56,598 nt of DNA from an uncultured Candidatus Saccharibacteria bacterium (GTDB taxonomy: Bacteria; Patescibacteriota; Minisyncoccia; Phycocordibacterales; Zambryskibacteraceae): positions 42,342-98,939 of the forward strand of contig CAZRVE010000001.1 in the NCBI GenBank assembly GCA_964603485.1. The letters are read 5' to 3'. A model generated the notes under the pieces. The model was not told where the DNA came from. It did not search any database and saw only the letters and a list, made by a program, of their open reading frames with translations. The translations under genes were made by a program, and so were the position numbers. Shown piece by piece: positions 1 to 27,337 of this stretch; the stretch's first letter is position 1, and every line of letters starts with the position of its first letter.

Positions 1-671
1 CTTCCACCAACGACGATCTGCGATGGTGTCGCAGAGAGTGTGATGGTGGGGCTTGGGATGGGATCAGGAACCTTCGCTACGATCACTACGACGCGACCAG
101 ACTTGGTTGTGTCAGCAGATGCTCGTGCGCGAACGCCCGTAGTGCCAGGAGAAACCCCCGTGATCTCACCCGTGTTAGACACGGTTGCGATCGTAGGAGT
201 CTCGCTCGTCCAAAGGACAGAGAGAGAAATCCCCGGTTCACCAGAGACAGCGGCCGAAGCGCGGGTCTTGTCACCCACGTACATTCGGACAGTATCAGGA
301 GCAACAACAATCGTAGTGGGGAGCTTTGCACGCTCTCGCACCACGACCTTTGCGGTGGCCTCTTTCGAGACCGTACCGTCGCAGCATGTCACCTTGACGG
401 TGACGTTGGTCTCGCCGACCGTAACACCAGTGATGACGCCGGAATTCGAAACCGTAGCAACTGACACCGCGCTCGACGTCCAGGTGACCGAGTTCACGCT
501 CGCATCGTTTGGCTGCCACGTGGCGGCCAAAGCCTTCGACTGACCCACATAAATGGTATCAGCCGATATCGAGACAGAAACGACGGGATCCGGACAGGGG
601 GCGGTGAGCTTTCTTGCGTCGCAGGCGACGAGCGCCAATGCTGACAAGAAAGGTACCAGAAACTTCCGCAT
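1..671 (-). CDS. Big_2 (bacterial Ig-like group 2) domain lipoprotein, N-terminal part; CDS runs off the window start
   Basis: Own translation of minus strand from ATG at 671: MRKFLVPFLSALALVACDARK... (signal peptide + lipobox L-V-A-C), then repeated Big_2-like segments (IYVGQSKALAATWQP...SVTWTSS..VATVSNSGVITGVTVGETNVTVKV). No stop before position 1. Strong SD AAGGAGG 7 nt upstream. Absent from the ORF track because it lacks an in-window stop. G+C-rich relative to the rest of the window. Confidence 0.7.
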   Translation of the reverse strand, partial: MRKFLVPFLSALALVACDARKLTAPCPDPVVSVSISADTIYVGQSKALAATWQPNDASVNSVTWTSSAVSVATVSNSGVITGVTVGETNVTVKVTCCDGTVSKEATAKVVVRERAKLPTTIVVAPDTVRMYVGDKTRASAAVSGEPGISLSVLWTSETPTIATVSNTGEITGVSPGTTGVRARASADTTKSGRVVVIVAKVPDPIPSPTITLSATPSQIVVGG

Positions 672-820
672 TGCATCCTCCTTAGGAATCGAGAAACGTA
701 ATAGTTCAGAATGACGAAGAGCGGTCTTTCCGCCCCCTACCCTGCCATAAAGAAATTCAAATGTCAATCCTATTATTCCCAATATAAATCATCATTTTTA
801 TTTTAAAAATACATAGTCTA

Positions 821-864
821 CTACCGAAACAATTTGTTGCGGTCGCAACAAATTGTTTCGGTAG
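821..864. repeat. Perfect 20-bp-stem hairpin, palindrome family 1 (loop GGTC within GCGGTCGC core), copy A
   Basis: ctaccgaaacaatttgttgc-ggtc-gcaacaaattgtttcggtag. Near-identical copy at 27396-27433 and related copy at 17831-17870. Confidence 0.8.
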
Positions 865-1008
865 TGTAGTGTTATAAATTTAAGGTTTTTGATTATTTCG
901 AAACCTTAAATATTTGGTATTCAAATACAATAATAAAAAACACCCTCGCATTGCGGGGTGTGTGGTTCGAGCTCTTGCGCCCGTGGTACGAGACCGGAGA
1001 TGGTGGTC

Positions 1009-1156
1009 TTACCCGGACGCGGCGCCGGTGAGCTTCTGGGCCTTCTGCGTCGTCTTCGCGGCGTGCCTGATGGCCATGTTCGTCGTCTGCACGATGATGG
1101 GGCTGTCCTGCATCGCAACGATGCGTTCGGTCTGTCGCCGGGCTTGTCGGGTCATG
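1009..1156 (-). CDS. Hypothetical small basic protein (~49 aa)
   Basis: ATG at 1156 preceded by GGAGAGAGA SD. Candidate promoter TTGCAA-N16-TATAGT on minus strand (~1210-1245). Followed by hairpin+T-run terminator near 930-960. Function unknown. Confidence 0.35.
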
Positions 1157-1310
1157 TCTCTCTCCGGTGTGGAGTGAAGGTGCGTGTCTCCCACTTGGGT
1201 GACTTATTTACTATAGCAATCAATAAAAACCTTGCAAGATGTCCGGACAAATCGCAAAAGAAAATAAAGAAAAAGAGCGTCCCTAAATTGGGACGCTCCA
1301 TGTCTTCTTC

Positions 1311-1733
1311 TTACGGACGATCAGTGATGTGGAATCCAGCTTCCGGAAGGAAACCATGCTCCCCAGCTTCGGTCTCCTCATTGAGGAGCTCCTCGATCAT
1401 GCCGTCGAGGCCATCTTCCTTAGAGAGCCTCGCAGCAGGATACTCGTCGGTCACGGTAGGTATCGCTTCGCGGTACCCGGGTGTGAGATCGAAATGAGCC
1501 TGCGAAACATCACCGGCGCTCCGTCGGTAGATAGTGGGCTGACCGACCTCGTCTGCCGAATCGGCAGATTCCACATCGGGAGACACCGATAGGCAGTGGA
1601 AGCTTGCCGAGTGCAAACCTCTGCCTACCAGTCCTTCCTTGTGGAGCTGCTCGATCTCAGCAACCGCGTCGACTCCGAGGTCAACAGGTTCGTCGAGCTC
1701 TTCCTGACGTGATGCAGGTCTGCGCCTTGCCAT
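1311..1733 (-). CDS. Hypothetical acidic protein (140 aa)
   Basis: ORF with strong SD (GGGGGAG) and extended -10 promoter (TGgTATAAT) upstream. Perfect hairpin gagcgtccc-taaatt-gggacgctc + T-rich tract immediately downstream on minus strand. G+C-rich codon usage unlike neighbours. Confidence 0.55.
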   Translation of the reverse strand: MARRRPASRQEELDEPVDLGVDAVAEIEQLHKEGLVGRGLHSASFHCLSVSPDVESADSADEVGQPTIYRRSAGDVSQAHFDLTPGYREAIPTVTDEYPAARLSKEDGLDGMIEELLNEETEAGEHGFLPEAGFHITDRP

Positions 1734-1795
1734 TCACTCCCCCTTTTCCAGCTGTGATAGGTGAACTGCCAAATTTCCGTTTTCAATTATACCAC

Positions 1796-2785
1796 TTAGA
1801 ACTGCCCACTGTCCATAGTCTTCAAATAGTTTTCCACAACCCCTTCTACCTCCCTGCTATCTTTTGCGTCCATAAGAGTTTTCCGCAAATCAGCCGCTCC
1901 ACCCCAACCCGTCACATATGCTTTGTAATGCTTCTTCATCAATGCAAAACTCTTAATATCACCAAGAAGTTCTTCAAAAAGTTTTGTGTGCTCGACGAGA
2001 ACACGAAGTCTCTCTTCTAGAGTCGGATTCTTTTCAGAGAAAAGCCATGGATTGCCAAAGATTGCTCGTCCAAGCATCACGCCGTCGCAACCAGTTTCTT
2101 CTACTTTTCTTTTTGCATCAGCAATATCTACCGCATCACCATTTCCAAGAATGTAAGTTTCACTCTTCATATCGTTACGTATAACGACAGATTCTCTGAC
2201 ATGCTCCCAACGCGCGGGGACTTTAGACATTTCTTTTCGTGTCCGCGCATGAATAGTAAGTGCTACTGGTTTTGTCTCAAGAATTTTCGGAACCCAGGTT
2301 TCAAGTTCTATTGTATTAAATCCCACCCGAGTTTTTACAGAAACAGGAAGATGAAGCGCTCCCTGCTTTGCTGCGTAGATAACTTCCTGAGCCAGAGCTG
2401 GATCCTTAATGAGAGCCGCACCTGCGCCTTGTCGCTCAATCGCTTTATCAGGGCATCCCATATTTATATCAATACCATCAAATCCAAGTTCACGAGCAAG
2501 AATAGCCGCTTGCTCCATCATCTCTGGCTTTGAGGCAAAAAACTGAGCGACAATTGGGCGTTCCTCTTCGGTATATTCAAGGTCTTTCAAAAGCTTCCTC
2601 TTCCCCTCCTCTGGTGCGCGAACAAGACCATCAGCAGAAACAAACTCTGTCCACATCACATCGGGTTTGCCGTATTTTGCAATCACGCGACGAAAAGAGG
2701 CGTCCGTGACATCTGCCATTGGTGCTAATACAAAAAAAGGTTTTTTGAGATTATCCCAAAAACTCATAGAAAGTGACGATACCAC
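1796..2785 (-). CDS. dus: tRNA-dihydrouridine synthase (Dus family, TIM-barrel FMN enzyme)
   Basis: 329-aa ORF. Typical Dus sequence features (VLAPMADVTD, GFDGIDINMGCP, catalytic Cys context). Confidence 0.85.
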   Translation of the reverse strand: MVSSLSMSFWDNLKKPFFVLAPMADVTDASFRRVIAKYGKPDVMWTEFVSADGLVRAPEEGKRKLLKDLEYTEEERPIVAQFFASKPEMMEQAAILARELGFDGIDINMGCPDKAIERQGAGAALIKDPALAQEVIYAAKQGALHLPVSVKTRVGFNTIELETWVPKILETKPVALTIHARTRKEMSKVPARWEHVRESVVIRNDMKSETYILGNGDAVDIADAKRKVEETGCDGVMLGRAIFGNPWLFSEKNPTLEERLRVLVEHTKLFEELLGDIKSFALMKKHYKAYVTGWGGAADLRKTLMDAKDSREVEGVVENYLKTMDSGQF

Positions 2786-2826: not shown

Positions 2827-2860
2827 GTAATTATCTGTGCCGATCGGCACAGATAATTAC
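2827..2860. repeat. 34-bp perfect palindrome, family 2 (GATC centre)
   Basis: gtaattatctgtgcc-gatc-ggcacagataattac. Imperfect copy at 15625-15662. Confidence 0.8.
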
Positions 2861-2901: not shown

Positions 2902-5280
2902 CTACACAGACTGAAGCTCTCGTTCGGTAAACTCAACCCTTGATCCATGTGTGAGTGCCCCAGAGATAATCTTATCCGCGATAATTTTCTCAACAGTATC
3001 TTGAATAGCTCGGTTTAAAGGGCGTGCACCAAACTTTGGATCAGTCCCCTTCTCCACTAGAAAGTCTACGAGAGTATCATTTACTACAAGAGTCATCCCT
3101 CTATCCTTCAAACGCCATGCGAGCCGGCCAAGAAGAACCTTTGCGATTTCTTGTAAGTGCTCTTTCTTTAATGCGTGGAACAACACCACTCCGTCAAAGC
3201 GATTCAGAAGTTCTGGACGGAATAATTGATTGTGAACAATTTCATCAACAATCTCATTCTTTTTTTCAAGAAGGTTTTCTCCTCGTTCTGTTGCTTCAAA
3301 TATTTTTTCGCTCCCTGCATTAGAAGTTGCGACGATAAGCATATTTCTTAGAGAGACCTTACGGCCCATTGCATCAGAGAATACTCCTTCATCAAGAATT
3401 TGAAGGAATAGGTCGAGGACTCGAGATTCGGTCTTCTCAAATTCATCCAGAAGAAGTACGCCGTACTGATGTTCTCGTGCTAAAGATGCAAGAACTCCAG
3501 GGGTTTCAGAGTCATATCCTCCAATTAAACGTGTGAGCGCATCAGGAGTGTCGTATTCAGACATATCTAGACGAACCATGTGAGATTCTTTATTAAAAAA
3601 TATTTCAGCAAGCGCTTTTGCGGTTTCAGTTTTCCCTACTCCCGTAGGACCGAGAAAAAGAAAAGAACCCATAGGTCGATTAGGGCTACTTATGCCAGAT
3701 CGCGCTCGGCGCAATGCGTCAGAAACCATACGAATCGCTTCGTTCTGACCAATCACCCGCTCATGAAGAAGTGTTTCCAGATTTGTAAGCTTTACCCGCT
3801 CGCTGTCAGTAACGTCTCCTGTGGGAACACCTGTGCGAGTACCAACTACAGAAAGAATATCTTCTTTTGTGATTAACGATCGTCCTAAGGAGCGAACGTG
3901 AGCGATTGCTTCTACTAAAATATTACCTGCAGTGTTATACAGAGGCTCCCCCACAAAATATCTCCCCGCAGAGTCAATCGCACTCTTCACTGCAGGATAG
4001 GTAAAGACCACTTCCTCGTCGGTTTCAAGTTCTATTACGTGCTCGAGAAGCATGGCGGAAACCTCCTCATGATTTGAGCCTTCTATAAATACAGTATCAA
4101 AGTGTTGTAGTAGCTCTTTATTTCCTTCGAGGGAAGTATGGAAACTTTGAGTTTCAGAGAGGGCCACTATATGAAGCGTTGGTGAAACAAGGTACGGAGA
4201 AAGAAGTGAGGAAAGATCTGAACCAAGTGTCCTTGCTTGCATGAGAAGCGCATCGATATCAGGTATCACAAGTATCAGATTCCCCGCCTTCACCATATCA
4301 TCCAAAATACCAACAAGAAGACGCTCAAACCCTCCCTTCGTATCTTCAAGAGAGATAATTGCATCAAGAGACAGAACACGAAGCACCATATCGGAAAGAT
4401 GTCGTGGAGCTTCTTTTCGGGAAAGTCTGCGTGCAAAACCTTCCACCACTTCCATTTTCCCCGAACCTTCCTCACCCACAATTAGCGCATTGGCGCTTGT
4501 TGATTTTGAAAGAATGACCTCAAGATTACTTGTCTCTTTTGGATGAAGCTCTTGGCGCTCTGACAAAGAGAAACGGAGTGGGGTACTAAAACGTTCAAGC
4601 TTATATGCAGTTCCGTATGACCAAGACCTCCCGATTGGCTCCACCTCTTGCAATCGTTCTCGTGACCACCACCTTTCATTGGACAGAGACTCTCTTACCA
4701 ACGAAGAAACCCACCGAAAAGACTCCTCGAGAGTTTTGGCTGTGACAGAATGCGCGAGAAGAAAGTTCTCAAAAGAAGCATCGGCGGAAATGAGCCCCTC
4801 TAGATAAGATGCAACGAGATTAGGTGTATCGGAAAAAGAAAAACTTGATCCTCTCGCGACAAGTTTACGTGAAGAAAGAAACTCTCTAAGTGAAGCCCTT
4901 TCGATTCCCACACGCAAAAGAGCTTCTTGTCCGTAAAGAGATTCGATGAATCCCCTCACCGGATCAGTCTCGGAAGAAGAGAAAACAACAGAAGCAAGTT
5001 CATACGAATAACTACGCTCACCTTCGCGCGCAAATACATGCGAGTAGAAAAAAGCGTCAAGCGCGATGGTGATGAGAAGGAGTGAGCCGACAATAAAGAA
5101 AAGTCCGGAAGTTCCAAGAGCTGACTCCCACAGTAAGTCATAGGCCACAATAAAAGATAGCGCCAAGAGAACCCAGAGAACCTTAATGCAGATTTTCCTA
5201 ATCTTATGCGGAAAGACATGTTCAAGGGCTGCAACTCCTCGCCAGAAACCTAGTTTTTGTTTTAGGTCTAAGAAGCTCAT
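2902..5280 (-). CDS. Membrane-anchored ClpB/ClpA-like AAA+ ATPase, degenerate NBD1, intact NBD2, no obvious M-domain or ClpP loop
   Basis: 792 aa. N-terminal hydrophobic helices instead of Clp N-domain. D1 Walker A reads GEEGSGKM (T->M) and Walker B region reads ILVIPDID (DE lost). D2 has canonical GPTGVGKTE and LLLDEFEK. ATGA overlap with upstream gene. Confidence 0.75.
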   Translation of the reverse strand: MSFLDLKQKLGFWRGVAALEHVFPHKIRKICIKVLWVLLALSFIVAYDLLWESALGTSGLFFIVGSLLLITIALDAFFYSHVFAREGERSYSYELASVVFSSSETDPVRGFIESLYGQEALLRVGIERASLREFLSSRKLVARGSSFSFSDTPNLVASYLEGLISADASFENFLLAHSVTAKTLEESFRWVSSLVRESLSNERWWSRERLQEVEPIGRSWSYGTAYKLERFSTPLRFSLSERQELHPKETSNLEVILSKSTSANALIVGEEGSGKMEVVEGFARRLSRKEAPRHLSDMVLRVLSLDAIISLEDTKGGFERLLVGILDDMVKAGNLILVIPDIDALLMQARTLGSDLSSLLSPYLVSPTLHIVALSETQSFHTSLEGNKELLQHFDTVFIEGSNHEEVSAMLLEHVIELETDEEVVFTYPAVKSAIDSAGRYFVGEPLYNTAGNILVEAIAHVRSLGRSLITKEDILSVVGTRTGVPTGDVTDSERVKLTNLETLLHERVIGQNEAIRMVSDALRRARSGISSPNRPMGSFLFLGPTGVGKTETAKALAEIFFNKESHMVRLDMSEYDTPDALTRLIGGYDSETPGVLASLAREHQYGVLLLDEFEKTESRVLDLFLQILDEGVFSDAMGRKVSLRNMLIVATSNAGSEKIFEATERGENLLEKKNEIVDEIVHNQLFRPELLNRFDGVVLFHALKKEHLQEIAKVLLGRLAWRLKDRGMTLVVNDTLVDFLVEKGTDPKFGARPLNRAIQDTVEKIIADKIISGALTHGSRVEFTERELQSV

Positions 5281-5705
5281 GAAAATATTTCAAAAATCCC
5301 AAGCGCAAACAAAAAAGCGATAATAAATGGAAGAAGTGCCCAAACCACGTAGATAAGCGCAACAGCAAGAAAAGCTAATGTGAGAACGATTGCTCCGAAG
5401 ATGAGAACCGCACTTCGGATTACAAAGCCTAGAGCGCGCGTAATTGCATTTACTACAAAAGTCGACAGGATATTTTCTGCATCCAATCCTTTCTCATACG
5501 TCTCGCCCAACCTCTTCCATGGAGAAAATAAAGTTCTCAAAAGAGATGAGAAGGAAAAAAATAAACCCACAAAAGAAATCAGGGCAACGCAGTTATCAGT
5601 CAAATCTTTCCACGCCCTACCGTAGTGCCACTTAAAATAATATGGAAGAACAAGAATCACATTCATATATATAAGTATACCTTGTGAGATACGTATGGAA
5701 AACAA
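5277..5705 (-). CDS. Hypothetical polytopic membrane protein, translationally coupled to the Clp-like ATPase
   Basis: 142-aa ORF with several hydrophobic helices. Stop overlaps start of downstream ATPase gene. Start codon uncertain (TTG at 5705 or internal ATG). Confidence 0.5.
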   Translation of the reverse strand: MFSIRISQGILIYMNVILVLPYYFKWHYGRAWKDLTDNCVALISFVGLFFSFSSLLRTLFSPWKRLGETYEKGLDAENILSTFVVNAITRALGFVIRSAVLIFGAIVLTLAFLAVALIYVVWALLPFIIAFLFALGIFEIFS

Positions 5706-5718
5706 ACTTTTACAATTC

Positions 5719-6534
5719 TTACTCTTCCCCCTTTCTCTTAAGAATTATCTTCTTCCCATACCGAAGATCGATAGATTCCACCTGCAGCTCCCCACCTTCT
5801 AAAATTGACAGTGTTGGGTCCCCTACGAGAGAAGTGAGATTTGCCAGAACGTCCGAAGGGTTATCTTCCAAAGAGAAAAGAATGTGTCCTCCCGCCACAG
5901 ACAAATCAAAAGAATCCGCCGATACCATATTTAATTCATTTGGAGAAAAACCAATATCCCGTACTTTACCCACAAAGTCTTTCACGAGGATAAACTTGGA
6001 TTCTTCAAGATAGAAAGAACCGATCGGAGAACCCTCCACTCCTCCACGGTAAATAAAATAGATTCCTGAAGAAAAGTCTCCTGCGTCATCAAAAATAAAT
6101 CCTTTCTCATCTAAAAAATAACATCCTCCACTTTCCCTATCTTGGCACCACAAGGATATTGGTTTTCTCAAAAAAAGCTCCACATGGAGAACTTTGTCTT
6201 TTTTCAAATCAAGATTCAAAGATTCAATTCTTCTAAAAGAATTCTTGAGTTCGTTTACAATTTCCTGCTTTGGATAAAAAAGAACACTTCGCTTTGGAAT
6301 GAAAAGCAAGAAATTTCCAGAAATCATATTTTCAATCGCGCCTTTTACATCTTCAGCATATACGCCCTCGGGGCTCTTTACTTCAACTCCTTTAATCTGA
6401 GAGAAAGGTGCGCGCAAAAGGAGAACTGGTGTCGCAAGAATAATGAGAGCAAAAATAGACCAGAGAGTAACCCGAAAAGCTACACGCCTTCGGCGCCTTA
6501 CCACAAGCTCTGGCCTACGGAGAGAACGTGGCAT
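5719..6534 (-). CDS. FtsQ/DivIB-like cell-division protein (Arg-rich cytoplasmic tail, one TM, POTRA-like region)
   Basis: 271 aa. N-terminal RRPELVVRRRRR, TM helix, then IKGVEV... pattern resembling FtsQ POTRA/beta domain. Confidence 0.5.
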   Translation of the reverse strand: MPRSLRRPELVVRRRRRVAFRVTLWSIFALIILATPVLLLRAPFSQIKGVEVKSPEGVYAEDVKGAIENMISGNFLLFIPKRSVLFYPKQEIVNELKNSFRRIESLNLDLKKDKVLHVELFLRKPISLWCQDRESGGCYFLDEKGFIFDDAGDFSSGIYFIYRGGVEGSPIGSFYLEESKFILVKDFVGKVRDIGFSPNELNMVSADSFDLSVAGGHILFSLEDNPSDVLANLTSLVGDPTLSILEGGELQVESIDLRYGKKIILKRKGEE

Positions 6535-6546
6535 AGAGAAAAAATG

Positions 6547-7821
6547 TTATGCCTTCCTGATAAACGTCTTTCCACCCATGTACTTTCGAAGTACTTCGGG
6601 AATAAGGATTGAACCGTCTTCTTGTTGATAATTTTCAACGAGAGAAATAAGGATTCTCGGAGTTGCGAGTGCGGTATTGTTGAGTGAGTGGGCAAATTGC
6701 ATCTTACCTTCCTCGTTCTTGTAACGAATATTAAGTCTTCTTGTCTGGAAATCGTGGAAATAAGAAGATGAGTGTGTTTCGCCGTATGAACCATGGCCAG
6801 GACGCCAAGATTCGATATCGTACTTCTTCACCTGACCAAGACCAAGATCTCCACCACAATTTACTACTACATGGTATGGAATCTTTAGAGCCTGAAGAAT
6901 TTCTTCGGCATTTTGAGTAAGCTCCTCATGATGCTTCACAGACTCTTCGTGACTTGCCTCACAAAGGACCACTTGCTCCAATTTGAAAAACTCATGCACA
7001 CGATAGAGACCTTTCACATCCTTTCCGTGACTTCCCGCTTCGCGTCTGAAGCAAGGAGAAAATGCAATGAACTTAAGCGGAAGACTTTCTTTTGGAATTA
7101 CTTCATCCATGAAATAACCCATAGTTCCCACCTCAGCAGTTCCTGCTAAGTATTCTCCATCTTGAGTCTTATATAAATCTTCTTCGCTTTGTGGAAGATA
7201 CCCAGTACCCATAAATGGTTCGCGACGCACAAGCGACGGAGCGAGGAGTGGAGTAAATCCTCCTTTTGTCATAAAAAAATCCATCACAAAATTCCACAAT
7301 GCAAAATTAAGGAGAACTCCATCACCTTTCAAGAAATACCCACGAAATCCTGAAACCTTTACCCCTCGCTCAAGCTCGATCAAGCCAAGATTTTCCATGA
7401 GCTCAATGTGATCTTTTGGTTTAAAGGAGAACTTCGGAATATCGCCCCAAACTTTAACCTCCTTATTGTCTGCGTCACTTTCTCCTTCTGGAACGGAGAT
7501 GTCTGGAACATTAGGGACCTGCACCATAAGAAGTTGCCAATCGTGCATTACCTTCTTAAGCTCCTCCTCATCTTTTTGAAGCTCTTCCTTCACCTTCTGC
7601 ATATTCTCAATATATTGAAGCTTCAATGTTGCGTTCTGCTCTTGAGAGATTTTTAGACTCATCTCATTTTGGGTAGCCCGAGCGGCCTCTACCCGAAGAA
7701 GAATTTCCTTCCTTTTATCATCGGCCTCTAGAAGATCCCCAACCTCAAATTTTATCCGCTTCTTTCGAGCAGCGTCTTTAATGAGGTCCTTATTTTCACG
7801 AATAAATTTTATATCAAGCAT
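6547..7821 (-). CDS. serS: Seryl-tRNA synthetase
   Basis: 424 aa. N-terminal coiled-coil arm then class II core. Classic SerS start MLDIKFIREN. Confidence 0.9.
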   Translation of the reverse strand: MLDIKFIRENKDLIKDAARKKRIKFEVGDLLEADDKRKEILLRVEAARATQNEMSLKISQEQNATLKLQYIENMQKVKEELQKDEEELKKVMHDWQLLMVQVPNVPDISVPEGESDADNKEVKVWGDIPKFSFKPKDHIELMENLGLIELERGVKVSGFRGYFLKGDGVLLNFALWNFVMDFFMTKGGFTPLLAPSLVRREPFMGTGYLPQSEEDLYKTQDGEYLAGTAEVGTMGYFMDEVIPKESLPLKFIAFSPCFRREAGSHGKDVKGLYRVHEFFKLEQVVLCEASHEESVKHHEELTQNAEEILQALKIPYHVVVNCGGDLGLGQVKKYDIESWRPGHGSYGETHSSSYFHDFQTRRLNIRYKNEEGKMQFAHSLNNTALATPRILISLVENYQQEDGSILIPEVLRKYMGGKTFIRKA

Positions 7822-7861
7822 GATTCCCTATGATAGCAAAAGTGTTAGAATATAGGAAAAT

Positions 7862-8713
7862 ATGGCGTACTCGATTCGCGAGCTTACCCATGCCGAATTT
7901 CCTGCCCTCCTTAAAGAAATCCCCGATCCTCCAGAAACTCTCTTCTGTGCCGGAACCCTTCCCTCAGAGGGGAGGTTACTTCTTGCGGTGGTCGGCGCCC
8001 GACAATATACCCAATATGGAAAAGAAGTATGCGAGAAGATTATCTCTGGCTTAAGTGGGCACCCCATTACTATTGTCTCTGGTCTTGCTCTTGGGATTGA
8101 TTCCATCGCTCACAAGACCGCACTTGAGTGTGGACTACCTACAATTGCAATACCCGGCTCGGGACTCGGGAAGGATGTGCTCTACCCAAGAACCCATCGA
8201 GAGCTTGCAGAAAGAATAGTTTCTTCAGATGGTGCGCTTATCTCAGAATTTGAAAATACTTTTAGGGCAACCCCCTGGAGCTTCCCTCGTCGAAACAGGA
8301 TCATGGCGGGCATGAGCCACGCGACTTTAGTAATTGAGGCTGAACAAAAATCTGGAACGCTCATCACCTCGAAGCTCGCCACAGAATACAATCGCGATGT
8401 CTTTACCGTACCCGGATCGATCTTTTCTCGTACATCAGAAGGTCCTCATATGCTTATACGTCTTGGAGCAATTCCAGTAACAAAAAGTGGGGATATTCTT
8501 GAGATATTTAACCTTGAAGAAAAAACTTCTCCAATGCATAGCGACCTCACAGAAGAAGAAAGATTTGTGGTAGAGCTCCTTACAAGTCCGATGACTCGTG
8601 ATGAACTGGTAAGAAAGAGCAAGCTTGAAACCTGGAAAATAAATTCAATTCTAAGTGCTATGGAAATCAAAGGATTAATTATTGAATCAATGGGGCAGAT
8701 ACGATTAACGTAA
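7862..8713 (+). CDS. dprA: DNA processing protein DprA/Smf
   Basis: 283 aa. Rossmann-like DprA core (VVGARQYTQYG...IVSGLALGIDSIAH). Confidence 0.85.
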   Translation: MAYSIRELTHAEFPALLKEIPDPPETLFCAGTLPSEGRLLLAVVGARQYTQYGKEVCEKIISGLSGHPITIVSGLALGIDSIAHKTALECGLPTIAIPGSGLGKDVLYPRTHRELAERIVSSDGALISEFENTFRATPWSFPRRNRIMAGMSHATLVIEAEQKSGTLITSKLATEYNRDVFTVPGSIFSRTSEGPHMLIRLGAIPVTKSGDILEIFNLEEKTSPMHSDLTEEERFVVELLTSPMTRDELVRKSKLETWKINSILSAMEIKGLIIESMGQIRLT

Positions 8714-8947: not shown

Positions 8948-8975
8948 AACTCGACACAATTGTGTCGAGTTTTTA
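8946..8975. terminator. Intrinsic (bidirectional) terminator hairpin
   Basis: aaactcgacacaa-ttgtgtcgagttttt between small ORF and topA. Confidence 0.6.
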
Positions 8976-9016
8976 TTTGCATTAAAAAAGTTTATGTAGT
9001 ACTAATTGATTCCAAT

Positions 9017-11182
9017 ATGAAACTACTTATTGTCGAGTCCCCCGCAAAGGCAAAGACAATTTCAAAATATCTTGATGGAGAGTATGAAGTCGTCGCTTCT
9101 GTCGGCCATGTTCGCGATTTACCAAAATCAAATAAGAAAGCAATTGATATTGAGGAAGGTTTTATTCCCCACTACGAAATATCGAAGGGCAAAGAAAAAG
9201 TTGTGAAGGAAATAAAAAGACTCGCAGCAGAAGCGGATGAAATTCTTCTTGCAACCGACCCCGACCGAGAAGGTGAAGCGATTGCATGGCATATTGCACA
9301 AGCCGTAGGAATTAAAAAGCCTAAGAGAGTCGTGTTCCACGAAATTACAAAAGATGCGGTGATTGACGCAGTGAAGCATCCTCGGGCAATAGATGAAAAT
9401 CTTAAGACGGCTCAGGAAGCTCGTCGCGTACTTGATCGCCTCGTGGGATACGATCTGTCCGGACTCATTTGGAAGAAGGTTCGTTACGGCCTCTCTGCAG
9501 GACGTGTTCAATCCCCCGCCCTCCGAATTATTATGGAGCGCGAAAGAGAAATTCGCCTCTTTAAAGGAGAAACTTTTTGGACAATATCCGCAGTGTTTCA
9601 TACAAAGAAAAAAGAAGAAATGACACTTGTGTGCGAAGAGGAACCCCGAGATAAGAAACAGGTCGATACTATACTTACAAAAGCAGAAAAGGGAGACTGG
9701 CTTGTTAGCTCTGTAAAAGAAAGTGAAGTAAAGCGCTCGCCTCGCCCGCCATTCATCACCTCAACCCTTCAGCAAGCAGCGAGTTCTCGCTTAGGATTTT
9801 CTCCATCACGAACCATGTCAGTAGCGCAAAGGCTTTATGAAGCCGGCCTTATCACCTATATGCGTACCGATAGTACCAACCTTTCGACCGTTGCGCTCAA
9901 ACAGATTGACACAGTGATAGAAAAAAACTTTGGAGAGGAGTACAAACAATCTCGCGTATTTGCTACTAAAAGTAAGAATGCTCAGGAAGCTCACGAAGCA
10001 ATACGCCCATCAGATGTATCCAAGAAAAGCGCGGGCCTTACTGAAGAGCAGAAACGCTTGTACTCTCTCATCTGGGAAAGAACCGTAGCCTCTCAGATGA
10101 AAGATGCAAAAGTTTTGAGAACAAAAGTTATTGCAAATATAAAAGATGAGTCGCTTCCTAACTTTTCTATAAACGGTTCCCGCGTGCTTTTTGACGGATG
10201 GCTTAAAGCTGACCCTCGTGCACGCCAAGACGATATTGAACTTCCTTTGCTCTCAAAAGGAGATCCTCTTTCTCTCCAAAAGATAGACAGTGAAGAAAAA
10301 GAAACTCAGCCGCCCGCACGCTATTCCGAAGCGGGACTTGTCAAAGAACTTGAGAAGCGAGGAATCGGACGTCCGTCAACTTATGCATCTATCATAAAAA
10401 CTATTGTTGACCGAGGTTACGTAATAAAACAAGACCGAGCGCTTTTCCCTACAGACACAGGAGATGTAGTGAGTTCATTCTTGGAAGATAATTTTACCGA
10501 CTACATCAGCGACTCCTTTACTGCAGAGATGGAGGACAAGCTAGACGATATTGCGCTCGGCAAAAGAGAATACGTAAAAACGCTCAGAGAATTTTACGGT
10601 CCATTCTTGAAGGACGTAAAAGCAAAAGAAAAAACAGAAAAAATCACCAACTTAGGAAAAGCTGACGACCAGTGGAAATGTCCAAAATGTGGAAAGGACA
10701 TGATCATAAAACTAGGACGCACCGGAAAGTTTCTCTCTTGTAGCACCTTCCCTGATTGCACAGGAGCGCGAACCATAGATGGAGAAGAGATGATGGGACC
10801 TAAGGACACAGGAGAGCTTTGTCCGCAGTGTGAGAAAGCAAATCTTGTGGAGCGCGATGGAAAGTATGGCAGATTTATTGCCTGTGGACGCTATCCAAAA
10901 TGTAAATTTGTAAAAGAAGATCCAGAAGCGAAAAAGAAACTCATGACAGGAGTGCCATGTCCTGTATGCTCTAAAGGAGAAATGATGGAGCGTCGTGGAA
11001 GATTTGGAATATTCTACTCGTGCAGCAATTACCCAGACTGCAAGAATGCGATTAAAGCAAAACCAACTGGAGCAATTTGCCCTATGTGCAACTCTCTCAT
11101 GATGGAAGGAACAAAAACTATTCCAGAAAGGTGTAGTAATAAAAACTGTCCAAATCACAATCCCCATAAGCTCATGAAGTAA
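9017..11182 (+). CDS. topA: DNA topoisomerase I with C-terminal zinc-ribbon repeats
   Basis: Toprim start MKLLIVESPAKAKTI. Active-site region. Four CxxC...CxxC ribbons at C-terminus. ORF-track start at 8960 judged an N-terminal over-extension. Confidence 0.9.
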   Translation: MKLLIVESPAKAKTISKYLDGEYEVVASVGHVRDLPKSNKKAIDIEEGFIPHYEISKGKEKVVKEIKRLAAEADEILLATDPDREGEAIAWHIAQAVGIKKPKRVVFHEITKDAVIDAVKHPRAIDENLKTAQEARRVLDRLVGYDLSGLIWKKVRYGLSAGRVQSPALRIIMEREREIRLFKGETFWTISAVFHTKKKEEMTLVCEEEPRDKKQVDTILTKAEKGDWLVSSVKESEVKRSPRPPFITSTLQQAASSRLGFSPSRTMSVAQRLYEAGLITYMRTDSTNLSTVALKQIDTVIEKNFGEEYKQSRVFATKSKNAQEAHEAIRPSDVSKKSAGLTEEQKRLYSLIWERTVASQMKDAKVLRTKVIANIKDESLPNFSINGSRVLFDGWLKADPRARQDDIELPLLSKGDPLSLQKIDSEEKETQPPARYSEAGLVKELEKRGIGRPSTYASIIKTIVDRGYVIKQDRALFPTDTGDVVSSFLEDNFTDYISDSFTAEMEDKLDDIALGKREYVKTLREFYGPFLKDVKAKEKTEKITNLGKADDQWKCPKCGKDMIIKLGRTGKFLSCSTFPDCTGARTIDGEEMMGPKDTGELCPQCEKANLVERDGKYGRFIACGRYPKCKFVKEDPEAKKKLMTGVPCPVCSKGEMMERRGRFGIFYSCSNYPDCKNAIKAKPTGAICPMCNSLMMEGTKTIPERCSNKNCPNHNPHKLMK

Positions 11183-19205: not shown

Positions 19206-21902
19206 TTACTTCTTAAGAGTCTGCTTTGAATCGAGCATGCTCTCAGTCCAAAGACTTCCCTTTCTTCCCTTCTTCACTTCGAAGGTAAATTCACCACTCT
19301 TTAAGCCCACAGTAATAGTACCTCCCTTAGAAACCCCTTTTGAAATCATGAGAGACGCCACTGGAGTGAGGATCTTATTTTGAATAAGGCGCTTAAGTGG
19401 TCGGGCACCATACTGAGGGTTGTATCCTTCTTGAGAAAGGCGCTCGAGCACTTGTGGAGTAATGTCGAGAGTAATTTCTTTCTGCGAAAGACGCTCTTTC
19501 ACAAGATCTACTTGAATCTTCACAATTTCCTTTACCGCTTCCGGAGAAAGAATATTGAAGAGGATGATATCATCGAGTCGGTTTAGGAATTCTGGTCGGA
19601 AATGCTCTTTTACCGCTTCCATTACTTTTTCTTTTGCGTCTTCATAACCACCCTGGGCCTGCTTATCTTGAGCAAATCCAATCTTCTCCATCTTGTCGAT
19701 ATATTGCGCTCCGATATTTGAAGTGAGGATGATGACAGAATTTTTAAAATTCACCACACGACCCTTTGCATCAGTAAGACGACCATTATCAAGAACCTGA
19801 AGAAGGATATTGAATACCTCAGGGTGAGCCTTTTCTATTTCATCAAAAAGGATTACTGCATATGGACGATGTCGGATGAGCTCGGTCAACTGACCTCCTT
19901 CATCATGTCCAACATAACCCGGTGGAGAGCCGATAAGCTTAGAAACTGAATGCTTTTCCATGAACTCAGACATGTCCACTCGAATAAGCGCTTTCTCATC
20001 ATCAAACATAAATCCAGCGAGAGCTTTTGTGAGCTCAGTTTTTCCTACGCCCGTTGGCCCGAGGAACATAAATGAACCAATCGGCCGATTCGGATCAGCG
20101 ATACCTGCGCGACTACGCTTAATGGTGTCTGAAATCTTCTGCACCGCCTCATCTTGGCCAATAATGCGACGAGTAAGAAATTCCTCCATACGAGAAAGCT
20201 TCTCTGCTTCTTCCTCAAGCATTCTGGAAACAGGAATACCTGTCCAACGAGACACGATGTCAGCAATGTCTTGCTCAACGATTTCTTCTTTCAAAATTCT
20301 GCGAGAACTTTGAAGTCGTTTTAATCTCTTCGACTTCTGATCAAGATCGCTCATAAGAGCAGGGATTTTTCCGTATCGGATCTCAGCAACGGTTGAAAGA
20401 TCGGACCGAGATTCTGCCGCTTCCGCTTCAAGGCGAAGGGTTTCGAGATCTTTTTTGATTTTCTTGAGATCACCTACTGTTTCTTTTTCATTTTTCCACT
20501 TAAGCTCTATTTCCTGAGTTTTTTCCCGAAAATCAGCAATCTCTTTTTCAATCTCTTTAATGCGTATCTTTGTCTTAGGATTCTTACTGTCAGCATGAAG
20601 CTCCTTCTTAAGTGCTTCTCGTTCAATCTCAAGCTTCATTACTTTCGCATTTGTCTCCTCTAGGATTGGTGGCATATTTTCAAGAGAAATCTTCAAATGA
20701 GAAGCCGCTTCATCAATCAAATCCACCGCTTTGTCTGGCAAGAAACGATCAGTAATGTAGCGAGAAGCAAGGTTTACTGCAGCAACAATTGCATCGTCAG
20801 TAATACGAACCCCATGATAGAGTTCATACTTTTCTTTAAGGCCTCGGAGGATTGTTACTGCATCTTCTTGAGATGGCTCGTTCACAAATACAGGCTGGAA
20901 GCGCCGTGTAAGAGCGGGATCTTTTTCAATATGCTTCTGATATTCCTTAAGAGTAGTTGCTCCAATAGCCCGAAGTTCCCCACGCGCAAGAGCTGGCTTC
21001 AACATATTTGAAGCATCAAGAGAGCCTTCCGCAGCTCCAGCACCCACAATCGTATGAATCTCGTCAATAAAGAGAATAATTTTCCCTTCTGAGCGTTCAA
21101 TTTCCTTCAAAATATTTTTAAGACGTTCTTCAAATTCCCCTCGATATTTTGTTCCCGCAATCAAAAGCCCGAGATCAAGAGATACAAGTTCTTTATCTCG
21201 AAGAGACTCTGGAACATTTCCAGAAGCCATACGAATTGCGAGCCCTTCAACAATTGCGGTCTTTCCGACGCCCGCCTCGCCAATGAGAATTGGATTATTT
21301 TTTGTTCGACGAGAAAGAATCTGGATGATGCGAGAAATTTCAAGCTCACGACCAATAACTGGATCCAACTTGTTTTGAGATGCCAGTTTTGTGAGGCTCC
21401 GGGTGTATTTGAGAAGAGATTTTAGCTTTTTTGGTTCTTTTTCTGCGTGAGTTTTTGCAGATCGTAATTCTTCAATCACGCGAAATACTGTCGCATGGTC
21501 AAGTTTGAAACGCATGAGAAGATCTTTTGCGGGACCAGGGACATCAATTGTTGAAAGAAAGAGGTGTTCAGTTGAAACAAACTCATCGCCAAGGCTTTGT
21601 GCGACTTTTGTACTTCCTTCAATAACTTGCGCAAGTTCTGGTGTAAGAAAAATCTGATAACTCGGAGTCATCGTCTGAGAGCCTTCCGTAGATTCAATTG
21701 ACTCTAGAAGAGAATCAGTAAGAAGAATGGTATCAACATCAAGCTTATCAAGAATTGATGCGACCATGCTTTCTTCCTGCATCATGAGTGCAGCAAGAAG
21801 ATGCATTGGATTCACATGATTTTGGCCCCGCTCAATGGCTAATTCATGAGCTTTTCTGATGGCCTCCTTTGCTTTTGTAGTGAATTGATTAAAGGGTGGC
21901 AT
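19206..21902 (-). CDS. clpB: Chaperone ClpB (two AAA+ modules with long coiled-coil M-domain)
   Basis: Both Walker A/B sets intact ([16 protein letters not shown]; [19 protein letters not shown]). Long coiled-coil between NBD1 and NBD2. Start at ATG 21902 with GGAG SD (track start 21920 is 6 codons longer). Confidence 0.9.
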
Positions 21903-21953
21903 GACGCTCCTAGGATACAATACTTGATTTGTTAAGTAAAGAAATCAGAAAAC

Positions 21954-22760
21954 CTACAAACCGACCTGCGAAAGAGCCTTCTGCACTAGAGAAACAGGCA
22001 AAAAACTCTGTCCTGAAGTAGCATCAAAAGATACTCTTATGCCGACAACCTCGCCAGAAAGATTCAAAAGAGGAGCGCCAATAACTAGCGGGGTTGCTTG
22101 AATATCTGTCTGAATTGAAACAATCTCCTTTGACTCCCCTTCTCCACGAGGAAGCGTAGTAATTCTGCCAATAGAAACACTATTCTTATCTCGTCCATCA
22201 AGGACGATTACAGATTGTCCTAGCTGGGCCTCCTTTGCGCCAAGCAACACTGGATTTGTTTTGAGAGGATTTTGAGCATCCTTTATGACCCTAAAGAAAG
22301 CGAACCGTCCGCTTTGATCCACTTGGACGAGCTTCATTTGATGATTCGATCCATCACCGAAAAGCGCAGAGTATGTGGTTGCTGCATTCACTCCTTCACG
22401 AACTGCTGAAACCACAAGTCCATCCTTTGAAACAAGAACACCCATCCCATAAAAAGAAGGGAGTCCGTCAGTAAGTGCAGTATCGGTTATGCGCACAATA
22501 CTATTTCCATTTTTTGCAATCGAATCAATAACTTGATCCTCCTCTTTTACCACGACAGTTACTTCTTTTATGGTTTCCTTACCGCCTGACTCTGTTGCAA
22601 CTTGCTCAATAGTTTTTTCTACCACGCGATTAATCACCTGAGTCACTCCCGGAGGAGCTTCTTGGAGAAGAGAGGTAGTGATAATTCCCGTTGCGATTGA
22701 AGTCACAAAAGAAACAAGAAGTGTCAGAAGAATAAGTTGATTTTTATTGAGATCGTCCAT
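21954..22760 (-). CDS. Membrane-anchored trypsin-like (HtrA/S1C-like) domain protein, probably catalytically inactive
   Basis: N-terminal TM. Region TDIQATPLVIGAPLLNLSGEVVGI aligns to HtrA [24 protein letters not shown] with the GNSGGP serine motif replaced. No clear His motif. Confidence 0.5.
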   Translation of the reverse strand: MDDLNKNQLILLTLLVSFVTSIATGIITTSLLQEAPPGVTQVINRVVEKTIEQVATESGGKETIKEVTVVVKEEDQVIDSIAKNGNSIVRITDTALTDGLPSFYGMGVLVSKDGLVVSAVREGVNAATTYSALFGDGSNHQMKLVQVDQSGRFAFFRVIKDAQNPLKTNPVLLGAKEAQLGQSVIVLDGRDKNSVSIGRITTLPRGEGESKEIVSIQTDIQATPLVIGAPLLNLSGEVVGIRVSFDATSGQSFLPVSLVQKALSQVGL

Positions 22761-26410: not shown

Positions 26411-26485
26411 GGCGTAGTGGCGAAGTGGTAACGCAGCGGTCTGCAAAACCGCGACGCAGGGGTTCGATTCCCCTCTACGCCTCCA
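26411..26485 (+). tRNA. tRNA-Cys (anticodon GCA), encoded CCA
   Basis: Acceptor ggcgtag/ctacgcc, anticodon loop ctGCAaa, T-loop TTCGATT, discriminator U. Confidence 0.85.
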
Positions 26486-26523
26486 TCTTAAACCGGTAAT
26501 TTCTTTTACTGGAAAAGACGAAC

Positions 26524-26608
26524 GCCCGGGTGGTGAAATGGTATACACGGAGGACTTAAAATCCTTTGCCCGTTAAAAGGCGTGTGAGTTCGAGTCTCAC
26601 CCCGGGCA
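26524..26608 (+). tRNA. tRNA-Leu (anticodon TAA), long variable arm
   Basis: Acceptor gcccggg/cccgggc, anticodon loop acTTAAaat, T-loop TTCGAGT. Confidence 0.8.
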
Positions 26609-26710
26609 CTTGGTTTTACGTTTTCAATTGTTAATATGCATCCGTAACTGTTTTGGTAGGTATACAGATCGCGTGGTAGAAATAAGGCGTAGTAGGTAAA
26701 ATTAAAATAT

Positions 26711-26783
26711 GCATCCATAGCTCAGCTGGTAGAGCAGATCCCTCTTAAGGATAAGGTCGCAGGTTCGAACCCTGCTGGGTGCA
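26711..26783 (+). tRNA. tRNA-Lys (anticodon CTT)
   Basis: Acceptor gcatcca/tgggtgc, D-arm agctcagctggtagagc, anticodon loop ctCTTaa, T-loop TTCGAAC. Partial 5' duplicate (atatgcatcc) ~60 bp upstream. Confidence 0.8.
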
Positions 26784-26869
26784 CAAGATAGAAAAATATA
26801 AACTACTTTATATTTTTCGATACTTGTGCAGGTCGGAAGCATGTCCTGCTAGAAAGCAGGACAGCTGAG

Positions 26870-27110
26870 ACAGGGTCGTGAGATTTTTCTTGTGACGACA
26901 AGAAAAATACTCCTGACCACAAGTCTTTTGTGCAGGGCGCAGTGATGTTTTTGTTTGAGCGTAGCTCAAGGCAAAAACCACGAGCCGGGGTCGCGAGATT
27001 TTTCCGTCAGGAAAAATACTTGTGACCACACATGGGGACCAAAGTCATGTTTTGTGACCACAAGACTTCTGCGCATGGTGCACTGATATGTTTATTTGAA
27101 TGTATTTTTT
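26870..27110. repeat. Two tandem ~110-120-bp units with conserved hairpins (compensatory changes) in ORF-free inter-tRNA spacer
   Basis: Unit 1 ...gggtcgtgagatttttcttgtgacgacaagaaaaatactcctgaccacaag...tgcagggcgcagtgatgtttttgtttga. Unit 2 ...ggggtcgcgagatttttccgtcaggaaaaatacttgtgaccacaag...tgcgcatggtgcactgatatgtttatttga. Stems atttttcttgt/acaagaaaaat versus atttttcc/ggaaaaat. Confidence 0.6.
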
Positions 27111-27141
27111 ATTTTTCTATATATGCTAAAGTTCTACCCAT

Positions 27142-27222
27142 GCTGGGGTGGTGAAATGGCAGACACGCTTGCCTTAGGAGCAAGTGCCGTAAGGCGTGGA
27201 GGTTCAAGTCCTCTCCCCAGCA
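27142..27222 (+). tRNA. tRNA-Leu (anticodon TAG)
   Basis: Acceptor gctgggg/ccccagc, anticodon loop ccTTAGga, variable arm, T-loop TTCAAGT. TTGAAT-N16-TATATA promoter upstream. Confidence 0.8.
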
Positions 27223-27337
27223 CACGTAGTGTGCTTGAGCAAAACAATTGATTGTTTTGCGTGAGAGGACTTGAAAACCTTGAGTATCTCGGCTTGCCGG
27301 GACGAAAGGTGTACCGCTCCCGTAGGGAGAAAGATTC

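Follow-up and report, generated by a model that had tools for sequence, protein, structure and literature searches.

Among the described systems, two-ring Clp/Hsp100 proteins come closest to the one treated here, with ClpB/Hsp104 (TIGR03346) nearest in sequence. To our knowledge, substrate grip in all Hsp100s studied so far is exerted through pore loops, and we know of no integral-membrane Hsp100 that has been characterised. Outside this group, FtsH, Msp1/ATAD1 and Bcs1 have a single classical-clade AAA module with conserved aromatic pore loops, and archaeal LonB has a Lon-type module; FtsH and LonB also carry a protease domain. In Pex1/Pex6 and NSF, all ATPase-driven work is done by one ring, with the other kept as a degenerate structural scaffold. 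Here we analysed two adjacent genes, A and B, from the window (the whole stretch of 56,598 nucleotides):

2902 to 5280, minus strand: gene A, 792 aa, a two-ring Clp/Hsp100-type AAA+ protein, predicted to be membrane-anchored
5277 to 5666, minus strand: gene B, 129 aa from the ATG at 5666, a small membrane protein

Both open reading frames exist, on the minus strand, at the coordinates given in an earlier reading of the letters alone (the sequence-only reading). The B-A pair is real and widespread in the CPR/Patescibacteria, and full-text literature searches found no account of the A-B family. A resembles FtsH and Msp1-type proteins in its (predicted) N-terminal TM anchor, but it has two Clp-type modules where FtsH, Msp1/ATAD1 and Bcs1 have one classical module, it has no protease domain, and none of these proteins, nor LonB, has an obligatory B-like partner. 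It shares its division of labour between rings with Pex1/Pex6 and NSF, which, unlike A, are eukaryotic proteins of the classical AAA+ clade and are not themselves integrally anchored in the membrane.

The proposal that A is a ClpB paralog was borne out: compared with the window's ClpB (19206-21902), A is 39% identical in D2 (E = 1e-71) and 29% identical in D1 (E = 3e-21). The protein contains tandem Clp-type AAA+ modules and its best profile matches are all Clp-type; D2 matches AAA_2 and ClpB_D2-small, with PF00004 as a secondary match only, also on D2. Its scores on the NCBIfam ClpB equivalog (TIGR03346, 419 bits) and on NCBIfam ClpA (TIGR02639, 341 bits) are below the respective cut-offs of 1232 and 993 bits. 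Like ClpB/Hsp104, A has two AAA+ modules, a ClpB D2-small domain and no ClpP loop, but it differs in lacking the M-domain, in having an apparently dead D1 without the pore Tyr and a shortened D2 GYVG loop, and in having a predicted membrane hairpin and no detectable Clp_N. From ClpA/ClpC it differs by the absence of the IGL/IGF ClpP-docking loop, by its dead D1 and by its predicted membrane anchor. The missing M-domain coiled coil and ClpP loop had both been noticed from the letters, and the alignments agree. Nothing in A aligns with E. coli ClpB residues 403-526 (a gap spanning alignment columns 520-649), and coupling to DnaK is therefore not expected. The tripeptide [ILMV]-G-[FLIM] is absent at the ClpP-docking position (after D2 sensor-1) from A and from all of the 116 full-length relatives on which family motif counts were taken; the loop there has the length seen in ClpB, with no ClpA/ClpC-type insertion. 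A ClpP-adaptor reading was rejected, as none of these relatives has the loop. No peptidase domain was found in A by profile search.

Read from its N-terminus, A has a predicted TM hairpin, then some 120 aa of helical domain, a Trp-rich linker, D1 in degenerate form and D2 with its catalytic residues intact. The parts of this last module are:

2902 to 3888, minus strand: D2 (A residues 465-792), a catalytically intact AAA+ module with the ClpB D2-small domain
3628 to 3651, minus strand: D2 Walker A, GPTGVGKT
3433 to 3456, minus strand: D2 Walker B, LLLDEFEK
3496 to 3528, minus strand: D2 pore loop, LIGGYDSETPG; the 15-residue ClpB counterpart is four residues longer

Sequence comparison supports a catalytically intact D2. 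A retains the residues expected in Walker A and Walker B, at sensor-1 and sensor-2 and at the Arg finger, and these five classes are invariant in the family (116/116, including the Arg finger R694). Mean pairwise identity is 54% in D2-large versus 30% across D1. D2 had been called canonical in the sequence-only reading, which holds for the catalytic residues but not for the pore loop: where ClpB has 13 residues, A has GGYDSETPG, with Tyr589 kept and the GYVG motif lost. Across the family this loop is 4–6 residues shorter than in ClpB, highly variable, and aromatic in 66/116 relatives.

D1 has the following remnants:

3889 to 4560, minus strand: D1 (A residues 241-464), a pseudo-ATPase AAA+ module
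4453 to 4476, minus strand: D1 Walker A remnant, GEEGSGKM (GEAGVGKT in ClpB; Lys kept, Thr replaced by Met)
4252 to 4278, minus strand: D1 Walker B remnant, LILVIPDID (IILFIDEIH in ClpB; DE replaced by PD)
4324 to 4353, minus strand: D1 pore-loop remnant, SLEDTKGGFE (ten residues in ClpB also; Tyr lost)

The motif comparison supports a D1 that is catalytically dead, with loss of its motifs nearly family-wide, in line with the earlier prediction of no ATP hydrolysis in this module. That prediction had correctly identified the loss of the Walker B DE pair (IPD in LILVIPDID), but it had misread Walker A as losing its Lys (K-M), whereas the Lys is kept and it is the Mg-binding Thr that has become Met. 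In addition, the Arg-finger pair has changed from RR to QH, and the pore loop has DTKG where ClpB has KYRG. Among the relatives, the Walker A Lys is kept in 46/116, the T/S position is Thr in 4/116 (Ser is absent from the eight commonest residues) and the Walker B catalytic Glu is present in 6/116, while the pore-loop Tyr column is never aromatic (0/116).

The part of A ahead of D1 contains four elements:

5197 to 5280, minus strand: A residues 1-28, a pair of short, conserved helices on the cytoplasmic side (LE..FPH..R), with basic residues immediately ahead of TM1
5032 to 5196, minus strand: A residues 29-83, a predicted two-helix TM hairpin with a short outer loop (hydropathy and AlphaFold)
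4681 to 5031, minus strand: A residues 84-200, a seven-helix domain where the Clp N-domain would stand (AlphaFold)
4561 to 4680, minus strand: A residues 201-240, the Trp-rich family signature linker (family alignment)

Hydropathy, charge bias and AlphaFold helices predict that A is anchored in the membrane by its N-terminus. The 19-residue Kyte-Doolittle mean is 2.13 for the hydrophobic segment at residues ~30-52 and 2.43 for the one at ~58-82, and the hairpin helices were modelled at residues 25-46 and 57-82 with a pLDDT of about 90, as were the short helices before them (3-9 and 11-22). Exactly two hydrophobic peaks are found in 107/116 relatives, with a K/R-poor loop (median 11 aa) between them, and the 15 aa before TM1 contain a mean of 3.8 K+R across the family, as expected under a positive-inside bias. 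The TM segments have a mean identity of 22% and no conserved polar lining residues. As a prediction, then, the transmembrane N-terminus proposed from the letters stands; the further claim that TM helices replace the Clp N-domain is only half correct, since the hairpin is separated from D1 by about 120 aa of helical domain. Its seven modelled helices (92-99, 107-113, 115-124, 128-137, 155-166, 168-176 and 181-202) have a pLDDT of about 90. Clp_N was not matched by Pfam in 18 family members at E <= 10 or by a PDB profile search with residues 84-200. Using hhalign, the comparison of this domain with the ClpB N-domain (a three-sequence Clp_N alignment) was marginal (P about 0.003), and an internal repeat between its two halves was similarly marginal (P about 0.003). 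The linker that follows, ERWWS-x3-L-x6-IG(R/K)xWxYG-xAYxLE(R/K)(Y/F)S, surpasses every region other than D2 in conservation (39% mean pairwise identity), with W205 in 115/116, L210 in 113/116, G223 in 112/116, W204 in 105/116, W220 in 97/116 and Y222 in 92/116 relatives; its Gly-flanked aromatic loop (residues 215-223) is flexible in the model (pLDDT < 50).

For B, the longest open reading frame spans 5277 to 5705 from a TTG start and encodes 142 aa, the size given in the sequence-only reading. The ATG at 5666, giving 129 aa, is most likely the start, as database homologues are 126-135 aa long and all align from the Met at 5666. The TGA stop of B overlaps the ATG start of A as ATGA, confirming the overlap seen earlier and supporting translational coupling of the two genes. 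Hydropathy gives B two robust C-terminal TM segments and one weaker segment; it is not clearly the polytopic protein of the earlier description. Five motifs are invariant among the homologues (Y..WHY, F...FFS, F.PW.R, N...R..G...R and W...P). No Pfam family was matched at threshold (2/11 members had a sub-threshold match to DUF7420), a fold search against the PDB gave no match at E <= 0.001 (the top matches were generic long-helix proteins), and profile-profile comparison of B with the A N-terminus gave a 9-column WxYGxA(Y/W) resemblance that was not significant. A B homologue (E <= 6e-32) lies directly upstream of A on the same strand in the window and in 18/18 fetched loci (14 distinct), and one extra context, listed without DNA, has a 129-aa gene at this position. 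The junctions are overlaps or gaps of at most ~17 nt, and the pairing is kept even where the outer neighbours differ; B-A fusions were not found among 188 retrieved sequences.

A profile search with the A N-terminal region returned 669 clusters at 50% identity, and all named members are Patescibacteria. Pattern-based scans gave only 4 loci in a genome collection and 5 in a metagenome collection, so the taxonomic survey is thin. The family is not a chance finding, given the 669 clusters and the conserved gene pair. Judged by its sequence features, A belongs to a new CPR family with a TM hairpin, a helical domain, an RWW...IG+xWxYG linker, a dead D1 beside a live D2, and B upstream. The outer neighbours are more varied:

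5719 to 6534, minus strand: FtsQ/DivIB-like membrane protein gene, 271 aa, upstream of B; a frequent but not obligatory neighbour

This protein has no Pfam match itself, but shares 29% identity (E = 7e-39) with a syntenic protein from another locus (L009) that passes the POTRA_1 gathering score. Recurring neighbours elsewhere are FtsQ-like POTRA proteins, UppS, Bac_transf and GT4 sugar transferases, and S11/YkuD/M14 peptidases; no secretion-system genes were found near B-A. Drawn from four context classes, one of which has just a cold-shock gene, these neighbours point, anecdotally, to envelope and division functions more than to general proteostasis. A PADLOC reading (DolB, PDC-M37B) was rejected, as the resemblance is generic ClpB-D2 similarity only and there is no defence context.

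Our leading reading, held tentatively, is that A and B form a membrane-embedded machine in which D2 is the sole motor and which, rather than degrading proteins of the membrane or envelope, remodels or extracts them. The two proteins would be subunits of a CPR/Patescibacteria-specific membrane AAA+ machine, with A as an Hsp100 of ClpA-like architecture (N-region, D1, D2, no M-domain). By homology, A would be a cytoplasmic double-ring hexamer, held against the membrane by an N-terminal TM hairpin of presumed in-out-in topology. D1, which probably no longer hydrolyses ATP and in most relatives no longer binds nucleotide either, would serve as a structural spacer ring, leaving D2, with every catalytic residue kept, as the only motor. 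Through translational coupling, B would be made in fixed proportion to A and would add a second membrane hairpin and a conserved N-terminal part facing the cytoplasm. From gene adjacency and coupling, this part probably docks on the N-region and Trp-rich linker of A, and B may act as an adaptor, gate or substrate receptor. ATP hydrolysis in D2 would then power the pulling or remodelling of membrane-embedded or membrane-associated proteins, with envelope or division components the likeliest targets, and the substrates would be neither handed to ClpP nor processed in cooperation with DnaK. A dedicated membrane-protein quality-control or extraction module, as the sequence-only reading had it, is thus plausible. 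The threading/extraction mechanism is weakened because the D1 Tyr column is aromatic in 0/116 relatives and the D2 loop is short and aromatic in 66/116; such unconserved pore loops look odd for a processive threading motor, although A in the window keeps Tyr589.

The same loops bear on the strongest alternative, which we consider unlikely but worth weighing: a non-threading switch in which an ATP-driven conformational change in D2 regulates envelope growth or division without polypeptide translocation. Movement would be relayed by way of the rigid, dead D1 ring, the Trp-rich linker and the hairpins and would reach either B or enzymes of the divisome and cell wall, comparable to Torsin with LAP1/LULL1 or to FtsEX. 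The canonical motif is gone from both pore loops family-wide, the small membrane partner is obligatory, FtsQ-like, UppS and peptidoglycan-peptidase genes recur nearby, and the most conserved family-specific element is the membrane-proximal aromatic linker, all of which fit a switch. Torsin, however, is a single module whose Arg finger is supplied by the cofactor, whereas the D2 Arg finger and sensor-2 of A are kept throughout the family; furthermore, wall enzymes lie beyond the reach of A and B, both of which lack an extracytoplasmic domain (the outer loop of A being so short), and the D2 loop aromatic is still present in 57% of members, A in the window included.

A more radical version, which we regard as doubtful, would make the pair a hitherto unrecognised type of CPR membrane machine: an Hsp100 ring that works without classical pore-loop threading and, via the IGRSWSYG loop and B, either powers transport by way of a 24-helix membrane assembly or exerts mechanical control over division and envelope synthesis, as a lineage-specific core component of ultra-small cells. 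Improbable, too, is a translocation motor coupled to a channel, with the hairpins of six A and six B subunits forming a pore in line with the AAA+ channel to move proteins or another polymer across the membrane. With the predicted C-in hairpins of A and B, a putative hexamer would contain 24 TM helices or more, and the family is, by names, apparently restricted to the CPR, whose epibiotic lifestyle needs unusual transport. There is, however, no sign of a pore, the TM segments are poorly conserved, the pore loops are degenerate, and the neighbourhoods are free of secretion systems. Such a machine would be analogous to PTEX HSP101-EXP2 of Plasmodium or to FtsK/SpoIIIE; HSP101, however, differs from A in being soluble, in having an active D1, in keeping its pore loops and M-domain, and in docking onto a distinct pore protein. 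We give very little credence to A as a membrane-bound, FtsH-like unfoldase for ClpP: its ClpA-like architecture without an M-domain would suit this role, but the missing tripeptide and the ClpB-like loop length argue against it. Negligibly probable, and already refuted by the conservation data, is a decaying ClpB duplicate or pseudogene without its own function and only incidentally adjacent to B, which would explain the degenerate D1 motifs but not the 669 clusters, invariant D2 catalytic residues, intact reading frames, conserved signature linker and strict B-A pairing across 14 distinct loci.

Much of bacterial diversity belongs to the CPR/Patescibacteria, whose genomes are tiny and seldom retain paralogues that serve no need. 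An additional Hsp100 that appears to be membrane-fixed, driven by one ring and strictly paired with B is therefore probably important for the envelope or division. With its dead D1 and relaxed pore loops, the family also offers a natural experiment on AAA+ mechanism. At present its members go under names such as 'ClpC', 'Clp protease ATP-binding subunit', 'sigma-54 interaction domain protein' or 'hypothetical', and a practical annotation rule is that they fall short of both the ClpB and the ClpA cut-offs.

One further element lies beyond the 3' end of A:

2827 to 2860, minus strand: perfect hairpin with a 15-bp stem, starting 42 nt downstream of the A stop

As a hairpin without a T-tract, it is possibly a transcript end or a processing site.

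Gene A, which encodes the 792-aa Clp/Hsp100-type AAA+ protein of the window, overlaps the upstream gene B, which encodes a small membrane protein, with the TGA stop of B and the ATG of A sharing ATGA. The sequence-only reading had noted this overlap, which stands, and had taken B to be 142 aa long. However, because all B homologues in the databases are 126–135 aa and their alignment begins at the Met encoded at 5666, B is most likely 129 aa, judging by these homologues. The serS gene is also upstream of the pair on the same strand, and a dihydrouridine synthase gene (dus) is downstream of A, beyond a hairpin that has no T-tract and could serve as a terminator, as a processing site or for protein binding.

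Features of the B-A locus
2902..5280, minus strand: gene A, 792 aa
5277..5705, minus strand: gene B, longest ORF, 142 aa, TTG start
5277..5666, minus strand: gene B, most likely form, 129 aa, Met encoded at 5666
5719..6534, minus strand: FtsQ-like gene for a 271-aa membrane protein, 5' of B
2827-2860, minus strand: perfect hairpin, 15-bp stem, 4-nt loop (GTAATTATCTGTGCCGATCGGCACAGATAATTAC), beginning 42 nt 3' of the gene A stop

Pfam recognized only the second module of A (AAA_2 at 535–696, ClpB_D2-small at 704–783), and all matches to the NCBIfam models of ClpB, ClpA, ClpV, ClpG and ClpK were far under their cut-offs (419 bits versus 1232 for ClpB, 341 versus 993 for ClpA). In alignments to solved structures, A 255–464 corresponds to E. 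coli ClpB 192–403 (D1) and A 465–784 to ClpB 526–846 (D2), with no counterpart of the M-domain (ClpB 403–526); ClpA, itself without an M-domain, aligned to A in a single contiguous stretch. Compared with the window's own ClpB, A is 39% identical over D2 (E 1e-71) and 29% identical over D1 (E 3e-21). The alignments show A to be a two-module Hsp100 with a ClpA-like domain order and neither M-domain nor ClpP loop. Full-length A-type proteins are ~780–860 aa.

Segments of protein A
1–28: two short conserved helices, basic stretch at the end
29–83: two hydrophobic helices (Kyte-Doolittle 2.13 and 2.43), ~10-residue loop between
84–200: seven-helix domain
201–240: Trp-rich linker (NERWWSRERLQEVEPIGRSWSYGTAYKLERFS), 215–223 flexible in the model
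241–464: D1
465–792: D2

Motif states were counted per position in an alignment of 116 full-length representatives of 50%-identity clusters.

D1 motifs in ClpB and A, with counts among the 116 relatives
Walker A: GEAGVGKT in ClpB, GEEGSGKM in A (Lys retained, Mg-binding Thr changed to Met); Lys 46/116; at the T/S position, Thr 4/116 and Ser not among the eight commonest residues
Walker B: FIDE in ClpB, VIPD in A; Glu 6/116
Sensor-1: Thr in ClpB, Ser in A
Arg fingers: RR in ClpB, QH in A
Pore loop: KYRG in ClpB, DTKG in A; aromatic in the Tyr column 0/116

An AAA+ site with motif losses of this type cannot hydrolyse ATP, so A's D1 would be unable to do so; judging from these motifs, D1 is catalytically dead and often unable to bind nucleotide. 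The active site of D2 is fully conserved: the Walker A K and T, Walker B D and E, sensor-1 N, Arg finger and sensor-2 R are each present in 116/116, and A retains its catalytic motifs, including the Arg finger within NRFD and the sensor-2 GAR. From this census, a dead D1 with a live D2 characterizes the family as a whole and is no peculiarity of the window protein. Mean pairwise identity is 54% in D2-large, 39% in the Trp-rich linker, 30% in D1 and 22% in the hairpin, and the linker keeps W205 (115/116), L210 (113/116), G223 (112/116), W204 (105/116), W220 (97/116) and Y222 (92/116).

The D2 pore loop of A (LIGGYDSETPG) is 4 residues shorter than ClpB's, and Tyr589 is kept but the Ar-Φ-Gly motif is gone. 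Across the 116 relatives this loop is highly variable, with an aromatic residue in 66/116. Such relaxed pore loops are new relative to the sequence-only reading, whose description of D2 as canonical holds for the catalytic residues but not for this loop. Its prediction of a D1 without ATP hydrolysis agrees with the Walker B and Thr counts, and the Walker A site is indeed degenerate, although not by the proposed K-M substitution, as the Lys is kept and the Thr is what became Met. It was also correct that A has no M-domain and no IGF-type ClpP loop; the [ILMV]-G-[FLIM] pattern was found in 0/116 relatives.

At the N-terminus, exactly two hydrophobic peaks fall within the first 140 residues in 107/116 relatives, with a mean of 3.8 Lys+Arg in the 15 residues preceding TM1 and an inter-helix loop (median 11 residues) with few Lys/Arg. 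This fits a predicted in-out-in hairpin, which would place the ATPase on the cytoplasmic side. Transmembrane helices had been proposed to replace the Clp N-domain; the predicted hairpin is there, but it stands before a divergent helical N-domain (84–200), which sits where the Clp N-domain would be. Pfam did not find Clp_N in 18 A-type members, even at E 10, and a profile of 84–200 had no match among PDB sequences. With hhalign, both its comparison to a small Clp_N alignment and that between its two halves reached only P ~0.003, sharing the pattern 'L...D..f..fL...GI..e.l'.

B has no Pfam family (only a sub-threshold match to DUF7420, in 2 of 11 members). Its invariant motifs are Y..WHY, F...FFS, F.PW.R, N...R..G...R and W...P, and every member carries a pair of strong hydrophobic segments near the C-terminus (~86–108 and ~111–129) preceded by Arg residues, with a weaker one (~27–43) in only some. 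The AlphaFold model (pLDDT 79.6) has three long helices and no informative structural neighbours. In the window and in 18/18 loci fetched (14 distinct), the gene directly before the A homologue, in the same orientation, is a B homologue (HMM, E <= 6e-32), and a 129-aa gene holds this place in one extra context listed without DNA. At the junction the two genes overlap by ATGA or lie <= ~17 nt apart, and A is strictly translationally coupled to B. No B-A fusion proteins were found. The pairing is kept although the outer neighbours vary.

Gene orders around the pair
serS, FtsQ-like, B, A (most common)
uppS, B, A (Ryanbacteria)
cold-shock gene, B, A
sugar-transferase and GT4 genes, B, A

Some loci carry S11 D-Ala-D-Ala carboxypeptidase, YkuD or M14 peptidase genes downstream. 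The window's FtsQ-like protein is 29% identical (E 7e-39) to its orthologue in L009, a syntenic locus in a relative, which passes the POTRA_1 gathering score; within the fetched flanks, no ftsA or ftsZ accompanies the FtsQ-like gene here. The block topA, dprA (divergent), serS, FtsQ-like, B, A, dus (window 5719-8713 and 8960-11182) is conserved, including in relatives whose A-type proteins share only ~25–32% identity with A across the N-terminal half. Separately, the invariant WHYGRAW of B (residues 13–19, 5611-5631) resembles the near-invariant WSYGTAY of A (220–226, 4603-4623). The likeness, W-x-Y-G-x-A-[YW], spans only 9 columns in a profile-profile match that is not significant, and could be chance or mark an interaction element common to both proteins.

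Searching a 50%-identity cluster library with a profile of A's N-terminal 256 residues, which are free of AAA+ sequence, gave 669 clusters at E <= 1e-3, 443 at E <= 1e-10 and 235 at E <= 1e-30. Named members come from Zambryskibacteria, Ryanbacteria, Paceibacteria, 'Patescibacteria group' and two MAGs that carry the label Saccharibacteria. Their source annotations are 'hypothetical', 'sigma-54 interaction domain protein', 'ClpC' or 'Clp protease ATP-binding subunit', and full-text literature searches turned up no account of these proteins. A-type proteins are a large, uncharacterised, apparently CPR-restricted Hsp100 subfamily with a dedicated partner, B. On sequence criteria, A belongs to the Clp/Hsp100 superfamily and departs from each named subfamily in its defining features: from ClpB by the missing M-domain, from ClpA and ClpC by the missing ClpP loop, and from all three by scores under cut-off. 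Its D1 activity, pore loops and predicted membrane anchoring set it apart from every Hsp100 studied so far. The family is surprising for AAA+ specialists and bears on CPR cell biology, its function being only proposed.

The missing M-domain means that A-B cannot be a DnaK-coupled disaggregase, and the missing ClpP loop that it does not partner a protease. We tentatively favor, at slightly less than even odds, that A-B uses ATP to remodel or extract proteins in or at the membrane, with a probable link to envelope biogenesis or division. A would form a hexamer at the inner membrane face, with D1 as a structural ring (by likeness to Pex1/Pex6 or the NSF D2 ring), D2 as the sole motor and B as an obligatory membrane subunit (adaptor, gate or receptor). 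A would work somewhat like membrane-anchored AAA+ proteins such as FtsH and Msp1, but it is of another clade and has two rings. The main rival, which we hold to be rather unlikely, is a Torsin-like or FtsEX-like conformational switch with a ring that has given up threading; the degenerate pore loops speak for it, and the intact Arg finger and missing extracytoplasmic domain against it. We give little credence to a translocon made of a channel and a motor, a possible reading that lacks support. ClpP coupling (ClpP-type loop 0/116) and a decaying paralogue were both rejected by the data.

Elsewhere, window 1-1800 has 52% G+C versus ~43% over the remainder, with no convincing ORF, tandem repeat or Rfam family even at relaxed thresholds; its sole signal is a hairpin at ~808-875. 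Another G+C-rich stretch (51%) is at 28-30 kb. The window holds 8 tRNAs, including a cluster of four.

Other features of the window
26411-27223, plus strand: tRNA cluster (Cys, Leu-taa, Lys-ctt, Leu-tag)
19206-21920, minus strand: ClpB-like gene, full-length M-domain (~130 aa)
21954-22760, minus strand: gene for a 268-aa protein whose N-terminus bears a TM helix, immediately upstream of the ClpB-like gene on the same strand

The window's ClpB scored 1193 bits on TIGR03346, slightly under the 1232 cut-off. It has an 8-residue insertion following the D2 sensor-1 (19653-19685, minus strand), bearing an IGF tripeptide exactly at the ClpP-docking loop position of ClpA, ClpC and ClpX. 'BAP' is an engineered ClpB variant with a ClpP loop, and a natural ClpB with such a loop would be similar to it.
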